Of a DNA stretch of 64,000 bases, positions 2,893 through 19,252 are shown piece after piece (position 1 is the stretch's first letter; each line of letters opens with the position of its first letter). A model generated the notes under the pieces. That model saw only the letters and a list, made by a program, of their open reading frames with translations, was not told the DNA's origin and ran no database searches. Origin of the DNA: Escherichia phage vB_EcoM-S1P5QW. The stretch lies in the sequence record OL956808.1; one strand, 5' to 3'. The position numbers and the translations under genes are program-made.

Positions 2893-4591
2893 TTGTGTAT
2901 TGACCAGATGAAATAGAACTCATAGATGCCATTTTTTCTGTCCAATCACCACCAACGTCCCAATCAACTGTCCCAGCAACTTTCCAAGAAAGATTTCCAT
3001 TTACTGTATTAGTCTGATTTCCTTCAACTAAAGTGGTAGCATCTCCTTTAACTGTAATGTCAGCATTACCTTCAACTACAATAGTAACATTACCTTTAAC
3101 TAGGATAGTTCCATTACCTTCAACCGTCTTAGTTTCATCGCCACGTACAAATATTGTATTGCTTCCATCTATTTGGTGGAGACGATTATCCATGTTGTAA
3201 TAAATTTCTGACCCACCGACGTTAGTCTTTTTATCGCCAGCTACCAAAAAATTACCATCAGCATTTGTTATATCATACAAATTATCAACAGTTTTTCTTG
3301 TTTTTCTTCCTGACGGTGATACTTCCTCATATGTTCCAGTCGGATGAACTAATCTGTATCGTTCTTGTCCCGGGGTATCGTCAAATTCCTGAATATGACC
3401 GCTTTCAGTTTCCATTGTGTGAACATACGGGTATTCACCTTTATATGAAGAAACAGGTTCTTTAAATAAAATTCTCGAATCATTCGGAATAGGAGGGTCA
3501 GCTGGATCAGAAGACTTTGCTACAGCAGCAGCCATTGCTGACAAAGACCTAGCCGGTGTTTTCACTTCAATACCGTATGATTCCAAATTACCGGTAAGAA
3601 TAATCATGGTAACACGGGATGCACGGCCTTTTGTTTGTTGATACCACAATGAATCACGACCGGCTTTATATGCTTTTTCCCAATCTCCAGCTAACATAGC
3701 AGTTAACATTGTGTTAAATTTAGCTACACCGCCAACACCCATCTGAAATGCCATATTTTCTAACGCCATTTGACGAGAACGATTAACTGCTTGCCAAACT
3801 GGGCCAACTTTAGAATGTGATTTAATGTCACGTTGCATATCAGCCAAATCACGTTCAAATAAAGCTACCGCTTCTTCCATTGTAATAGAACCTGGATTTC
3901 CGGTAATTTCACGACCAACTTGTTTTGATAAAACTTTATTAATTTGAGTCATATCACGAACTGGCTGCTTCATGATAAGATGACCAATACCAATTGTCGG
4001 ATATCCTTCAGTATCCCAATAAACCTTTAGTCTTAATCCTTCATCACGGCGAAGCATTTCAGCCATTGACATATTTGGATTATCATCAGTTGGAATTTCT
4101 GATAGCGGTCTATCATCGGGATTTATCGCAGTATCTAGATTGCTATCTTGGATAATATTAGAAGACGAATCATATCCTACTTCTCCGCCTTGGTTTAATA
4201 CGTTAGTATCATTTCCTAGACGTCTAGGATACTGTCCAGTCGGGTCAGAAAATCCTTCAAGTCTATTCGGTTTTTCGCGAACTATTCCACCATACGTACC
4301 AAGGACAATTCCGTTAGTTTTCCATTTGTCTAAAAAATGACCATAAACTCTAGTTCCTTCTACTGGACCAGTAACGGAGCCTCCAATTCCAGACATTGCT
4401 GCAGAAGTTATAGGTTGAATAACTGACATCCATGGTAATTTATCAGTTGGAATACCCATTACGTCGCCTTGCGCTCTTTGAGGTGGATGCAGACCAACTA
4501 CACGAACACGAACACGACCTAATTTTAATGGGTCCATTCTATCTTCAACAACACCAACAAACCAATTAAGGTTATTACTTATCATTTCCAT
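2864..4591 (-). CDS. 5: baseplate central spike protein with tail lysozyme domain gp5
   Basis: 575 aa; internal T4-lysozyme-like domain (LRLKVYWDTEGYPTIGIGHL) and C-terminal VxGxxxxxx beta-helix repeats. Confidence 0.95.
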   Translation of the reverse strand: MEMISNNLNWFVGVVEDRMDPLKLGRVRVRVVGLHPPQRAQGDVMGIPTDKLPWMSVIQPITSAAMSGIGGSVTGPVEGTRVYGHFLDKWKTNGIVLGTYGGIVREKPNRLEGFSDPTGQYPRRLGNDTNVLNQGGEVGYDSSSNIIQDSNLDTAINPDDRPLSEIPTDDNPNMSMAEMLRRDEGLRLKVYWDTEGYPTIGIGHLIMKQPVRDMTQINKVLSKQVGREITGNPGSITMEEAVALFERDLADMQRDIKSHSKVGPVWQAVNRSRQMALENMAFQMGVGGVAKFNTMLTAMLAGDWEKAYKAGRDSLWYQQTKGRASRVTMIILTGNLESYGIEVKTPARSLSAMAAAVAKSSDPADPPIPNDSRILFKEPVSSYKGEYPYVHTMETESGHIQEFDDTPGQERYRLVHPTGTYEEVSPSGRKTRKTVDNLYDITNADGNFLVAGDKKTNVGGSEIYYNMDNRLHQIDGSNTIFVRGDETKTVEGNGTILVKGNVTIVVEGNADITVKGDATTLVEGNQTNTVNGNLSWKVAGTVDWDVGGDWTEKMASMSSISSGQYTIDGSRIDIG

Positions 4592-11505: not shown

Positions 11506-11820
11506 AACAAGAAGCCGGGTCGCTACCGGTAAGTCGTCGGACTGATGTTCCCTGGGTAAGGACTGGCATTAACAAATCTTTACGATCGGTTAATGCCCCC
11601 TTACATCACAGCAGAAACGGCGCACCGAATTATCGATTCGAGGAAATATCTTTGCCGTAAGCCGAGTAGCGTTTTTGACGGAACGTTCGGATATGGTCGA
11701 GATATGGCCTTTTAAAATATTAAGTAGCGTCAACTGCTTAATAACCGGGTTCGAATCCCGGCGTTTCGTACAAACACTTGCCTTAGCAGGTGGAACCCCG
11801 ACAAGGTTGCCGCAAGGCTT
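11506..11820 (+). ncRNA. candidate small stable RNA region (T4 species 1/2, RNA C/D-like)
   Basis: ~300 nt without convincing ORF, relatively GC-rich, contains tRNA-like T-arm CCGGGTTCGAATCCCGG, ends at a hairpin terminator. Confidence 0.35.
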
Positions 11821-11848
11821 AGCCCCGACCGAAAGGTTGGGGCTTTTT
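11821..11848 (+). terminator. intrinsic terminator hairpin plus T-run
   Basis: GCCCCGACCGAAAGGTTGGGGC followed by TTTTT. Confidence 0.7.
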
Positions 11849-11850
11849 AG

Positions 11851-11858
11851 TATAAATA
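11851..11858 (+). promoter_or_regulatory. late promoter TATAAATA
   Basis: exact octamer 37 nt upstream of the 11895 ORF. Confidence 0.5.
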
Positions 11859-11894
11859 AGTATATTAAAACCACGAATTAAAACAGGAAATAAG

Positions 11895-15848: not shown

Positions 15849-16285
15849 AAACATTATCAGCTGGTATTATCTTTATGACAGAAGATAAAGATTTATTCAT
15901 GGGACGGGTTACTGGTTCTCGTAAGCCTGGAATGATGGCACATCGCTGGGATATTCCAAAAGGCCGTGTAGAAAATTCTGATTTGAGCGCACTAGATGCA
16001 GCACGAAGAGAATGCTTAGAAGAGACCGGTTTTAGCAATTATAATCCAGACCTTCTAGAAGACCTAGGTGTATTTAAATATTCTAGTAATAAAGACTTAC
16101 AGCTGTTTTATTATACGATTCCAGTAGAGCATGAGATGTTTAGAAATTGCCATTGCGAGTCTTATTTTGAAAATAAAGATGGTGTTATGATTCCAGAGAT
16201 GGATGCTTTTGCTCTTATTCCTCGTACTCAGTGGCAATATGTGATGGGTCCTTCACTTTACCGAATAATGAACAGCCTCTTTTAA
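15845..16285 (+). CDS. nudE: Nudix hydrolase NudE
   Basis: Nudix box around DAARRECLEETGF; directly upstream of lysozyme e as in T4; start at ATG 15845 after AGGAAA. Confidence 0.8.
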   Translation: MKTLSAGIIFMTEDKDLFMGRVTGSRKPGMMAHRWDIPKGRVENSDLSALDAARRECLEETGFSNYNPDLLEDLGVFKYSSNKDLQLFYYTIPVEHEMFRNCHCESYFENKDGVMIPEMDAFALIPRTQWQYVMGPSLYRIMNSLF

Positions 16286-16816
<531 letters not shown>

Positions 16817-16910
16817 AGTTATTTACTTTCTCCTAGAATTGTGATAGTATATTCACAGTTACTTGAAGAGATAAATTATTAATTAAAATATTTACATTTA
16901 AAGGATACAC

Positions 16911-17384
16911 ATGAAAACATATCAAGAATTTATTACTGAAGCAGCTATTAATTCTCAAATTATTGCTGAATCTTTTACTGATCTTTTGAAATTTAAAAAA
17001 GGACAGAAAATCACTGCTGTACTGGATGATGGTACAGAAGTTGAGATGGATGTACAGGGATATAATTATGCAGTAGATGGAAAACTGTATAATAAATCTC
17101 ATGCTAAATTTGATTCATTTGACGACTTTGTTAATACAGTTGAAGATGAAAAAACTCGTCGATCCATTGCAACAGGTGATGCTAAGGTTCTTATGGCACA
17201 TGGTCATGAACGTATTCGCGCTAAACAGAATAAAATGGGTGAAGATAATTTTGCATTAGTTGGTTATCAATCTGGTAAACAAACTTATGGCTATCAACGT
17301 ACTGCTACCATGTATAACAAAAATGGTAAAATTGCCTTTGTGAATAGTAAAGGTTCTATTCAGTACGTTAAATCGTTCAAATAA
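16911..17384 (+). CDS. internal protein with capsid targeting sequence
   Basis: N-terminus MKTYQEFITEA matches T4 internal-protein CTS; 157 aa. Confidence 0.7.
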   Translation: MKTYQEFITEAAINSQIIAESFTDLLKFKKGQKITAVLDDGTEVEMDVQGYNYAVDGKLYNKSHAKFDSFDDFVNTVEDEKTRRSIATGDAKVLMAHGHERIRAKQNKMGEDNFALVGYQSGKQTYGYQRTATMYNKNGKIAFVNSKGSIQYVKSFK

Positions 17385-17537
17385 GCAAATAAGAAATATG
17401 GGAACAACCTGGACCTCATGATTCTGTGAGGGATTCCCGCCAACCTGTAATAAGGTCGAGCCCAAGTGCGGTAATGGGTAAATACAGAAATGGACAATTC
17501 ATGCGCCACGGAATGGCCCAAACCTAGAGAGAATAAA

Positions 17538-18077
17538 ATGAGAACATTTTTAACTGGTCCTTATCTATCCCTGATGAATGCTTTTACACACCATTCTGAT
17601 GCTAGAGTAGAAGAAATTTGTAAAAACGAATATATCCCGCCATTTGAAGAATTACTTAAACAGTATTGCACACTTCGACTAGATGGTGGACGTCAATCCG
17701 GTAAATCAATTGCTGTGACTAACTTTGCTGCTAATTGGTTGTATGATGGCGGAACAGTTATCGTTCTTTCTAATACTTCAGCTTACGCTAAAATTTCTGC
17801 AAATAACATTAAAAAGGAATTTTCGCGTTATTCTAATGATGATATACGTTTTCGTTTATTTACTGATTCTGTGCGCAGTTTTATTGGTAATAAAGGAAGC
17901 AAGTTCAGAGGTTTATCGCTTTCGCGAATTTTGTATATAATTGATGAGCCTGTCAAATCTCCTGATATGGATAAGATTTATAGTGTCCATATTGAGACTG
18001 TACACTACTGCTGTAATAGTAAATGTTGTATTGGTGGTATTACTCGTCCACAGTTTTTCGTAATCGGAATGCAATGA
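17538..18077 (+). CDS. small P-loop NTPase-like protein
   Basis: 179 aa from ATG 17538 (RBS GAGAGAA); Walker-A-like GGRQSGKS and Walker-B-like ILYIIDE. Confidence 0.5.
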   Translation: MRTFLTGPYLSLMNAFTHHSDARVEEICKNEYIPPFEELLKQYCTLRLDGGRQSGKSIAVTNFAANWLYDGGTVIVLSNTSAYAKISANNIKKEFSRYSNDDIRFRLFTDSVRSFIGNKGSKFRGLSLSRILYIIDEPVKSPDMDKIYSVHIETVHYCCNSKCCIGGITRPQFFVIGMQ

Positions 18078-18403
18078 TGACAGACACTCAGCTTTTCGAA
18101 TATCTTTATTTTTCGCCAAAAACTATTAAAAATAAATTGGTGAATCATTTTGAAATTTTGGCAAATAACAACGTCTTGAGCGAATTTTATCCTAAGCAAT
18201 ACAAATTACAAAAAGGCGTATTCAAAGGATGCAGAGTTTTGTGTACTGCTCCTAATGCACGGCTAATGAATAAAATTCCATATTTTACCATGGAATTTAT
18301 TGATGGTCCTTTTAAAGGACTAATCACCCAAAGTTTAATGGCATATGATTCTGAGCCATTTTTAATTAAAGAACAATCTTGGATAAATTTATTTTCTAAT
18401 TGA
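18074..18403 (+). CDS. hypothetical protein
   Basis: 109 aa; start ATG overlaps upstream stop (ATGATGA). Confidence 0.5.
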   Translation: MMTDTQLFEYLYFSPKTIKNKLVNHFEILANNNVLSEFYPKQYKLQKGVFKGCRVLCTAPNARLMNKIPYFTMEFIDGPFKGLITQSLMAYDSEPFLIKEQSWINLFSN

Positions 18404-18409
18404 GGTTAT

Positions 18410-18772
18410 ATGAAAGCATATCAAATTCTTGAAGGCACACATAAAGGTACTATTTATTTTGAAGATGGTATTCAAGCACGAATTATTGTCTCTAAAACCT
18501 TTAAAGAGGACTCTTTTGTAGACCCAGAAATTTTCTACGGTTTGCATGCCCGTGAAATTGAAATTGAGCCACAGCCTACAGTTAAAATTGAAGGTGGTCA
18601 ACACCTGAACGTTAACGTTCTGCGTCGTGAAACTCTGGAAGATGCAGTTAAGCATCCGGAAAAATATCCGCAGCTGACCATCCGTGTATCCGGTTATGCA
18701 GTTCGCTTTAACTCTCTGACTCCGGAACAGCAGCGCGACGTTATCGCTCGTACCTTTACTGAGAGTCTGTAA
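18410..18772 (+). CDS. autonomous glycyl radical cofactor (GrcA/YfiD-like; T4 Y06I homolog)
   Basis: C-terminal ~60 aa ([39 protein letters not shown]...) carry the glycyl-radical RVSGY motif and look essentially identical to E. coli GrcA. Confidence 0.85.
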
Positions 18773-18993
18773 TGGCAAAGATAATTATTGAAGGTTCTAA
18801 AGATGTGCTAAATGCTTTCGCAGAATGGTTTAGTAATTCAGGCGAACAGCAATTTAATGAAGCCTGGAATATGGGTGATATTGATGGAATTTATCCTACG
18901 ACAGAAATTTCTGTTCAAGGATATGGCATTCATGAACCTATTCGTTTAGTTGAATATGATTTATGCACTGGTGAGGAAGTCAAATATGATTGA
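18772..18993 (+). CDS. hypothetical protein
   Basis: 73-aa ORF, ATGA overlap with upstream gene. Confidence 0.5.
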   Translation: MAKIIIEGSKDVLNAFAEWFSNSGEQQFNEAWNMGDIDGIYPTTEISVQGYGIHEPIRLVEYDLCTGEEVKYD

Positions 18994-19252
18994 AGATATT
19001 AAAGGTTATAAGCCACATACCGACGAAAAAATCGGTAAAGTAAATGCTATTAAAGACGCTGAAGTTCGTTTAGGACTTATCTTTGATGCTTTATACGATG
19101 AATTTTGGGAAGCATTTGATAGCTGTGAAGATGATGAACTCGCGAAGAATTACGCCGAAAGCCTCGATCAGTTAACTATTGCTAAAACGAAACTCAAAGA
19201 AGCCAGTATGTGGGCTTGTCGTGCAGTGTTCCAACCAGAGGAAAAATATTAA
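18986..19252 (+). CDS. hypothetical protein in vs.4 position (possible Acb2-like anti-CBASS sponge)
   Basis: 88 aa; assignment by synteny only (second gene from regB, next to the GrcA-like vs.6 position). Confidence 0.4.

Follow-up and report, generated by a model that had tools for sequence, protein, structure and literature searches.

A predicted pseudoknotted RNA element upstream of vs.8 in T4-like phages recurs in several families of virulent enterobacterial phages

Introduction

Bacteriophage T4 encodes two structured RNAs of ~100-140 nucleotides (nt), species 1 and 2 (rnaC, rnaD), which are co-transcribed and processed with the phage tRNAs. Structured messenger RNA (mRNA) leaders that bind proteins are a second type of related system, represented by the pseudoknot operator of T4 gene 32 and by the S4-binding double pseudoknot of the alpha operon. 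Here we describe a predicted RNA element encoded directly upstream of the gene vs.8 in a stretch of 64,000 nt from Escherichia phage vB_EcoM-S1P5QW (sequence record OL956808.1), referred to below as the window. The element has copies in T4-like, rV5-like, phi92-like and N4-like phages and is rated here as a new RNA family of virulent enterobacterial phages, new in the sense that it matches no described RNA family, with the nearest catalogue (PMC10690425) compared by its text.

The element shares with the T4 species 1 and 2 RNAs a location among tRNA genes in phi92-like, N4-like and other phages. It differs from them in sequence and in locus, since the T4-like copy lies about 6 kb from the tRNA cluster and forms part of an mRNA leader; furthermore, it spans several phage families and has not been described among the abundant stable RNAs of T4. 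Another RNA class found in comparable places are the theta ribozymes, ribozymes of the hepatitis delta virus (HDV) type that are associated with tRNAs in gut phages (PMC10879173). A catalogue of 8,495 unnamed covarying RNA candidates has been derived from intergenic regions of IMG/VR (Fremin et al., 2023; PMC10690425). The element may be among these candidates; the text of that paper, as distinct from its models, contains no mention of the motif, of a spread across phage families, of the pseudoknot or of the overlap with T4 vs.8.

Results

The element is conserved in T4-like phages and present in further phage families

An initial annotation had described positions 17385-17537 of the window as a GC-rich, non-coding segment between an internal-protein gene and a P-loop gene, had proposed a structured RNA, a remnant of a lost gene or intron, or a protein binding site, and had stated that absence or lack of conservation in relatives would speak against it. 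The gap is real: the ip4-like open reading frame (ORF) ends at 17384 and vs.8 starts at 17538. A query of 143 nt matched 1,116 of the 50,697 phage records searched, and further copies were present on 44 IMG/VR contigs and about 34 metagenome contigs. Alignment with relatives showed the segment to be present and conserved, clearly not absent or unconserved. Over the query, Enterobacteria phage RB18 is 100% identical to the T4-like window. The first nucleotides of the gap (17385-17399) are a spacer without conservation, and the element proper comprises positions 17400-17519 on the plus strand, consisting in its T4-like form of a 5' pseudoknot domain, a core with a three-way junction and a 3' extension that is specific to T4-like phages. 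The conserved stretch starts right after the upstream stop codon (that of ip4 here, that of denV in T4) and extends to the ribosome-binding region of vs.8.

In Jiaodavirus KP1, Dhakavirus IME08, Mosigvirus phiC120 and Karamvirus PG7 the element fills an unannotated gap of 160-210 nt directly upstream of vs.8, preceded by four different genes. Altogether, vs.8 is immediately preceded by the element in at least five T4-like genera, irrespective of the gene on the upstream side. Its center is an invariant core of 32 nt (ACCUGUAAUAAGGUCGAGCCCAAGUGCGGUAA, 17443-17474, plus strand), which is identical in KP1, IME08 and phiC120, varies elsewhere in two loops only, and is near-identical in Karamvirus, rV5-like, phi92-like and N4-like phages and in phages of ~45 kb. 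By comparison, the Vs.8 proteins of KP1, IME08 and phiC120 are 39%, 64% and 81% identical to that of the window and the vs.8 coding sequences 57-77%; Vs.8 homologues, with identities down to 37%, were found in T4-like phages only. These identities point firmly to stronger purifying selection on the element than on the neighbouring genes.

Outside the T4-like phages the element is carried, unannotated, by Vequintavirus nimi, Phapecoctavirus phiWec188, the N4-like Klebsiella phage Pylas and the 45-kb phage Ivi. Its strand is always that of the neighbouring genes. The element has plainly moved horizontally between phage families. A BLAST search against 5,426 complete E. coli genomes yielded no match, and a pattern scan of one genome for each of 185,579 species yielded only three hits, in metagenome-assembled genomes of Blastocatellia, which were treated as chance matches: their sequence is GC-rich and the flanking helices are missing. 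A similar GC-rich hit in metagenome data scored 22.7 bits. Since the E. coli search was empty and the hits of the species scan resemble chance matches, we regard this as a phage element without a host or prophage copy in the collections searched.

The window itself contains a single copy, detected with the covariance model R1 at 68.3 bits (E 2e-19), and neither the pattern nor the covariance model found a second one. Some phages, including Karam-like contigs, carry tandem second copies about 85-115 nt apart. Such pairs are present at L023 (9028-9059 and 9142-9171), L037, L120 (361-523), L040 (837-953) and L057 (2106-2241), where L and a number denote related loci or contigs. The second copy is diverged (AGUCC...ACGGUAA) and retains the proposed pairs. 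Copies of the rV5 type are also found in five records of 135-141 kb labeled as Campylobacter phages (MG065635, MG065662, MG065672, MG065677 and MG065682); they are 86-94% identical to coliphage copies, and the host label or the purity of the assemblies looks doubtful. One Jiaodavirus-like contig, L021 (IMG/VR UViG_2974754850, about 1500-1700 on the minus strand), carries an internal-protein gene (MKTYKEFITEA...) after the element instead of vs.8, and is the sole break of the linkage between element and vs.8 among T4-like sequences.

Covariation points to an H-type pseudoknot that carries a three-way junction

The architecture was read from homologues placed side by side and subsequently tested by pair counts, with slid 3' partners as the control. 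Among 28 T4-like sequences 97.2% of the cells were paired, compared to 21-55% with slid partners. For the 17 sequences from outside the Tequatrovirus group a model of 33 pairs gave 92.8% paired cells, compared to 22-44% when the partners were slid by one to three columns, and none of 500 shuffles reached the covariation score of this model. These counts show a predicted RNA fold in which an H-type pseudoknot (helices P1 and PK) has a connecting strand bearing a three-way junction with the invariant 32-nt core. Of the explanations put forward initially, that of a structured RNA receives strong support, both from the covariation, which involves several helices, and from the deep conservation. 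All coordinates given below for its parts refer to the plus strand.

The 5' domain (17400-17438) consists of P1, which encloses the 5' strand of PK and a hairpin, P1b. P1 pairs 17400-17404 (GGGAA) with 17434-17438 (UUCCC). Both sides of all five pairs differ between Tequatrovirus and the remaining T4-like genera (AU/GC swaps), with 95% of the cells paired: GGGAA/UUCCC in Tequatrovirus is replaced there by AAAGG/CCUUU, AAAGC/GCUUU or AAAGA/UCUUU. The other lineages have GGGAG/CUCCC, GGGG/CCCC, GAGGG/CCCUC, GAAUG/CAUUC, GAGUG/CACUC, GUGUA/UACAC or GGAAC/GUUCC at this position. Hairpin P1b pairs 17414-17418 (CCUCA) with 17427-17431 (UGAGG); it reads CCUUA/UAAGG in L101, and its loop differs in length in L025 and L108. 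In T4-like phages this inner hairpin has 5 base pairs (bp) and a loop of 2-8 nt, or contains a large insert, and the N4-like and phi92-like forms have an unstructured A-rich strand of 7 nt in its place.

The three-way-junction domain (17440-17477) contains stem A, P2, the junction C-N-A, P3 and the sequence GGUAA. Stem A pairs 17440-17442 (CCA) with 17475-17477 (UGG) and closes the conserved core. In 37 distinct sequences from at least six lineages its innermost pair is never unpaired (AU in 18, UA in 8, CG in 6, UG in 4 and GC in 1). For the next pair the counts are CG 24 and GC 4. P2 pairs 17443-17446 (ACCU) with 17453-17456 (AGGU) and has a GNRA-like loop. P3 is a mini-hairpin (17460-17461 with 17468-17469) of ambiguous register, GC/GC or the version drawn by RNAalifold. 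P2 and P3 are nearly invariant, and the changes that support them all come from diverged second copies: an A-U to G-C change in P2 of L037b and a C-G to U-A change in P3 of L037b and L040b.

The pseudoknot helix PK joins the interior of P1 to the stretch past stem A (17409-17411, CUG, with 17485-17487, CAG). It is 3 bp long in Tequatrovirus and 4-7 bp long in other lineages. Its central pairs in the 17 T4-like sequences outside the Tequatrovirus group are CG in 16 and UA in 1 at the first position, CG in 10, AU in 3, UA in 3 and GC in 1 at the second, and GC in 13 and CG in 4 at the third, with none unpaired. RNAalifold, which is unable to draw pseudoknots, independently picked this long-range helix and also P2. 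For the other lineages the alignments were read by eye, giving CUCCGG/CCGGAG in Ivi, GUGAGGG/CCCUUAC in L018, CCAG/CUGG in nimi and CGGA/UCCG in N4-like phages. A further RNAalifold hairpin, GUAA/UUAC, was discarded: it is missing in Tequatrovirus and in the non-T4 lineages and clashes with the covarying stem A.

The T4-like-specific 3' extension (17488-17519) consists of an AUGGA motif (17490-17494), hairpin P5 (17505-17508, GCCA, with 17514-17517, UGGC; loop C-GGA-A) and the nucleotides CCC. It is conserved in every T4-like genus examined and absent from the other lineages. P5 is invariant and lies, for this reason, outside the reach of covariation testing. By inspection, the extension (17488-17519, and the leaders L009, L011, L028 and L042) carries GGA motifs of the CsrA-binding type, and the hairpin GCCA-NGGAA-UGGC exposes a loop GGA near the vs.8 ribosome-binding site. 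The sequence AUACAUGGAUGA, found in several genera, fits 10 of the 12 positions of RUACARGGAUGU, which we take to be the CsrA consensus.

Several of the proposed pairs are G-U pairs, on the plus strand only. Because these would be A-C mismatches on the other strand, the signal belongs to the plus strand RNA and not to the DNA. This bears on the idea that the segment has no function as RNA and is either the decaying remnant of a gene, an intron or a mobile element, or a site acting at the DNA level. The locus is a boundary of variable gene content in T4-like phages (ip4, denV, ipII, ipIII), and the element has moved between phage families, as a remnant or mobile site might. However, a remnant is expected to decay, whereas conservation of the core exceeds that of the adjacent genes, and there is no conserved reading frame; the compensatory changes, including G-U pairs, fit RNA and not duplex DNA. 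In addition, no group I or group II intron model of Rfam matched at E up to 10, and there is no homing endonuclease or other shared gene nearby. We therefore consider this explanation very improbable, and the lost gene or intron suggested initially did not hold up. The protein binding site suggested along with it has become unlikely as a DNA site: the element is invariably oriented like the genes around it, and its G-U pairs are confined to one of the two strands. The RNA could still bind a protein, as in the model discussed below.

The element does not appear to code for protein, and two annotated vs.8 starts lie within it

The non-coding status of the segment needed testing because two ORFs overlap it, one of 33 codons with a GTG start (17426-17527, plus strand) and one from an in-frame ATG at 17490. 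Three starts of vs.8 are annotated in public records: the long form of T4, the AR1-type start equivalent to ATG 17490, and ATG 17538. In T4 the gene is annotated with 219 residues (L002 3254-3913; NC_000866 64253-64912), running through the element and giving the protein an N-terminal extension of 40 residues.

According to a coding interpretation, the element would encode either a 33-residue protein or the N-terminal 40 residues of T4 Vs.8. Such an interpretation can point to the existence of the GTG ORF, to the T4 RefSeq record, which starts vs.8 at the equivalent ATG, and to a few substitutions between T4, AR1 and the window that are synonymous in the ORF frame. Against it, the 33-codon ORF has unstable start codons (GTG, ATG, CTG, ATA or TTG among close relatives), is interrupted by an internal stop in L025 and by a frame change in L108, and has no counterpart in the other T4-like genera, where indels of 4, 6 and 17 or more nt occur in the hairpin loop; we judged it to be spurious. 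The in-frame fusion is found in T4 only and is due to a tandem duplication of 8 bp (TTATAGAG twice) just ahead of the conserved ATG, and the other Tequatrovirus sequences examined have a stop before the vs.8 ATG or are out of frame. Of 41 variants, only 11 have the AR1-type start in frame and open. Furthermore, the 177 positions of the PHROG 1488 profile cover the 179-residue product of the 17538 start from end to end, and the non-T4 lineages have the core in plainly non-coding settings. The 40-residue extension of T4 and the AR1-type start are probably annotation artefacts. By all these comparisons the element does not code for protein, as the initial annotation had assumed; we give the opposite view next to no credence.

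Position, base composition and neighbouring genes

The claim that the segment is GC-rich was confirmed. Its G+C content is 45.8% (17385-17537) and that of the element 51.7% (17400-17519), compared to 34.9% for the whole window (standard deviation 5.1 in windows of 120 nt). Only 0.47% of the 120-nt windows reach 51.7%, and nearly all of them correspond to tRNA genes at 10.8-11.9 kb. The 3' half of vs.6 (18410-18772), which encodes a GrcA-like autonomous glycyl-radical cofactor with the motif RVSGYAVRF, is among the few coding stretches of the window that match the element in G+C. Another G+C-rich stretch follows tRNA-Arg at 11506-11860 and, judging by its position, presumably contains the homologues of the T4 stable RNA species 1 and 2 (rnaC, rnaD). 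In this stretch ARAGORN calls a 'tRNA-Lys' of 94 nt (11678-11771), which the Rfam tRNA model does not confirm.

The upstream neighbour (16911-17384, plus strand) encodes an ip4-like internal virion protein (Pfam DUF7412; PHROG 3155, 'internal virion protein'); its slot is variable and is occupied by denV or other genes in relatives. Downstream in T4-like phages lies vs.8 (17538-18077, plus strand), encoding a P-loop-like protein of 179 residues. Its ATG at 17538 and the N-terminus MRTFLTG... are kept among relatives, and the ATG is preceded by a purine-rich, Shine-Dalgarno-like stretch (AGAGAGAA; 17526-17540 including the ATG, plus strand). The gene order is nudE, lysozyme e, ip4, the element, vs.8, vs.7, the GrcA-like vs.6, regB and vs, all on the plus strand. 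A promoter and terminator scan of 17385-17537 found no match to a sigma-70-like promoter or an intrinsic terminator, in agreement with the initial annotation. Likewise, the T4-like loci have no promoter or terminator between the element and vs.8 and none within 300 nt downstream.

Outside T4-like phages the element is found among tRNA genes and between promoters

In phiWec188 the element is located inside a tRNA array, between tRNA-Thr and tRNA-Gly. In this phage and in Pylas, hairpins with ~20-bp stems (z -3.0 and -4.8) lie on both sides of it, at 1427-1516 and 1611-1700 of L129 (phiWec188) and at 2414-2538 and 2635-2735 of L056 (Pylas). The hairpins look like substrates of RNase III, the cleavage of which would release an RNA of ~100 nt, and the whole bracketed cassette appears to have moved between the phi92-like and N4-like families. 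Their arms share conserved sequences (ACAACAGGTAAGAGCATTG ... CAGTGCTCTTTCCGTTGTGG). In contig L046 the element starts a few to 45 nt after tRNA-Ser and is followed by an intrinsic terminator within 30 nt. Two sigma-70-type promoters flank the core in the rV5-like contigs, the first lying 116 nt upstream and the second about 57 nt downstream; nimi and Ivi likewise have a promoter downstream of the element. An rV5-like motif, CCCCTWAGAGGGMCTTGAWAGTGC, lies just upstream of the element and is repeated just downstream in one subtype (L018, L098; L003 2420-2470); it could be a processing or protein-binding signal.

An all-against-all BLASTP comparison of the ORFs of 19 loci revealed no protein family that recurs across lineages within 3 kb of the element. 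Because of the varied contexts outside T4-like phages, the tandem copies and the lack of a recurring protein family, the core behaves as an independent RNA gene that is mobile between families. It does not resemble a tRNA to ARAGORN, which made no call on the element in the window or at ten other loci.

Pylas (MH899585) has a further peculiarity. After six tRNA genes it contains an unannotated stretch of 1 kb (L056 2340-3360, about 66.7-67.8 kb) with several structured modules. A tag template resembling that of transfer-messenger RNA (tmRNA), ANDDVVLMAA-stop, is located at about 3040-3083 and a tRNA-like T arm (GCGGTTCGATTCCGCC) at 2697-2712. The tmRNA-like module stays below the Rfam gathering thresholds, with 33.7 bits for permuted tmRNA and 20.8 bits for beta tmRNA; it may be a phage-encoded tmRNA.

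These contexts bear on the main rival explanation, in which the element is purely a gene-specific cis-regulatory leader, riboswitch-like or operated by a protein, that controls vs.8 and the early operon and regulates downstream genes elsewhere. Much in the T4-like phages agrees with this: in all T4-like genera examined the element lies directly before vs.8 and behind a variable upstream gene, and its conserved 3' extension reaches the ribosome-binding site and has near-consensus GGA sites of the CsrA type, read by eye. The invariant junction with its covarying helices looks like an aptamer, riboswitches are also known in tandem, and in L046 and L047 a terminator follows just downstream, as in transcriptional riboswitches. 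The constant position in the 5' untranslated region of functionally coherent genes that is expected of a leader is found in T4-like phages, where the element always precedes vs.8, and not in the rV5-like, phi92-like, N4-like and Ivi-like ones. Against the rival explanation, a promoter separates the element from the next gene in rV5-like phages and in Ivi, in phiWec188 and Pylas the element sits amid tRNA genes or non-coding modules with no nearby gene to regulate, the lineages have no downstream gene family in common, and in L021 the next gene is the internal-protein gene. A purely cis-acting role is thus unlikely in our view, while remaining the strongest competitor.

Known riboswitch aptamers and protein-binding leaders have the same general features as the element, that is, an invariant junction, covarying helices and a pseudoknot, a site in front of the ribosome-binding site (in T4-like phages) and tandem copies. 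The element differs from them in having no constant downstream gene outside T4-like phages, where promoters or tRNA genes intervene, and no Rfam riboswitch or leader model matches it.

The element matches no described RNA family

The 4,227 covariance models of Rfam 15 were run with permissive filters and E values up to 10 over the region 16000-19000, and nothing overlapped 17385-17537. At the Rfam gathering score only tRNAs were found, both in the whole window and at 16 related loci. ARAGORN detected 11 tRNA genes at 9.9-11.8 kb and none at 17.4 kb. In Pylas the sole Rfam hit over the element was a chance match of 14.9 bits to a trypanosome small nucleolar RNA. Full-text literature searches with the core sequence and sets of keywords gave no description of the element; the RegB paper covers the denV ribosome-binding site only. 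Several likenesses seen by eye were dropped for want of support from the conservation pattern or from Rfam, namely those to the 530 loop of 16S rRNA (AGC...GCGGUAAU), to RNase P RNA (AUAAGGU) and 4.5S RNA, and to the tRNA D and T arms, ToxI and the hammerhead core.

The element might also be an RNA catalyst of a new class, self-cleaving or other, by which polycistronic tRNA and mRNA transcripts are processed. Like small ribozymes, it is scattered in unrelated phages without a constant gene partner and occurs in tandem copies, and its invariant nucleotides are framed by covarying helices and a pseudoknot. Both the element and HDV-like ribozymes are encoded between the genes of tailed phages, frequently within or beside tRNA arrays, which is the reported context of theta ribozymes (PMC10879173). 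In our own reading, its order of strands (P1 5', PK 5', P1b, P1 3', stem A domain, PK 3') fits the nested HDV-like topology P1-P2-P3-P1'-P4-P2'.

The resemblance does not extend to the details. The catalytic cytosine at the first position of J4/2 in HDV-like ribozymes tolerates no substitution (PMC10879173), but a conserved C after the P4-like stem is lacking: the nucleotide after the 3' strand of stem A is G, U or C depending on the lineage, in a linker of 1-10 nt with unrelated sequences. HDV-like ribozymes have a short GC-rich P3 and a conserved L3 that forms P1.1; in the element the counterpart of P3 and L3 is variable or absent, with none in the N4-like or Ivi forms. P1 of the element is 4-6 bp long and does not begin with a G-U pair. 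Conservation is highest in the branched 'P4' domain, a part that HDV-like ribozymes can do without. No Rfam ribozyme family, that of HDV included, matches even at E up to 10, and we can name no candidate cleavage site. A ribozyme, which ranks next after the cis-acting leader among the rivals, is accordingly rather improbable.

Discussion

The results are best accommodated by an autonomous RNA module which acts in trans where it is a separate gene and additionally serves as the vs.8 leader in T4-like phages; we rate the chances of this proposal as about even. In such a model the covarying P1/PK pseudoknot and stem A would form a scaffold for a binding surface, and the invariant junction would bind a specific and conserved putative partner; candidates are proteins of the host or the phage, other RNAs and small ligands. 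The phi92-like, N4-like and rV5-like phages would have the module as a discrete small RNA, generated by processing of a tRNA-operon transcript or transcribed from its own promoter, and this RNA would probably have a trans-acting role in translation, RNA metabolism or host defence. The T4-like phages would co-transcribe the module with the upstream gene, as the 5' leader of vs.8. Here the lineage-specific 3' extension, with its AUGGA motif and GGA-loop hairpin, joins the module to the ribosome-binding site, and for this reason the module may also set the translation of vs.8.

Several observations weigh against this proposal. The minimum free energy of the single sequence is no better than that of shuffled sequences on either strand (z +0.46 and -0.08); a folding signal of this kind is expected to be absent because of the pseudoknot. 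The window carries the Tequatrovirus version, whose PK comprises only 3 bp; among the N4-like variants some have a weak stem A, and the Tequatro-like contig L024 lacks the GGG of P1. A gene-specific cis-regulator would be expected to be linked to vs.8 as tightly as the element is in T4-like phages. Finally, the classical studies of T4 are not known to have found abundant small stable RNAs other than the tRNAs and species 1 and 2, which disfavours an abundant free RNA in T4 and favours a pure cis role there.

The folding result also bears on how such elements are recognized. RNA folding and an Rfam scan had been suggested as checks; the former was uninformative and the latter returned no match over the segment, so that these two as sole quick checks would have misled and the segment would have been dismissed. 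The initial interpretation was, overall, partly supported.

A bolder reading is that the element represents a new functional class of phage RNA, either a ribozyme or a trans-acting decoy or aptamer for a conserved host factor, which has spread horizontally. We regard it as possible but somewhat less probable than the module proposal. The host factor captured could then belong to the translation or RNA-processing machinery, or be RNA polymerase or a component or signal of antiphage defence, and the element would have been overlooked in T4 because it was annotated as part of a protein.

If the proposal is true, phage biology would gain a new player, and one from T4, whose genome is among the most thoroughly studied: an RNA of ~120 nt with a double-pseudoknot fold, common to T4-like, rV5-like, phi92-like and N4-like phages and small siphophages. 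The spread across phage families, together with the lack of a host or prophage copy in the collections searched, suggests that the element functions specifically in lytic infection, for example in host takeover, RNA processing or counter-defence. The finding corrects the annotation of T4, in which the record translates vs.8 through the RNA, and a covariance model of the family would label an unannotated gap in more than a thousand phage genomes. The function of the element is directly testable by T4 genetics.

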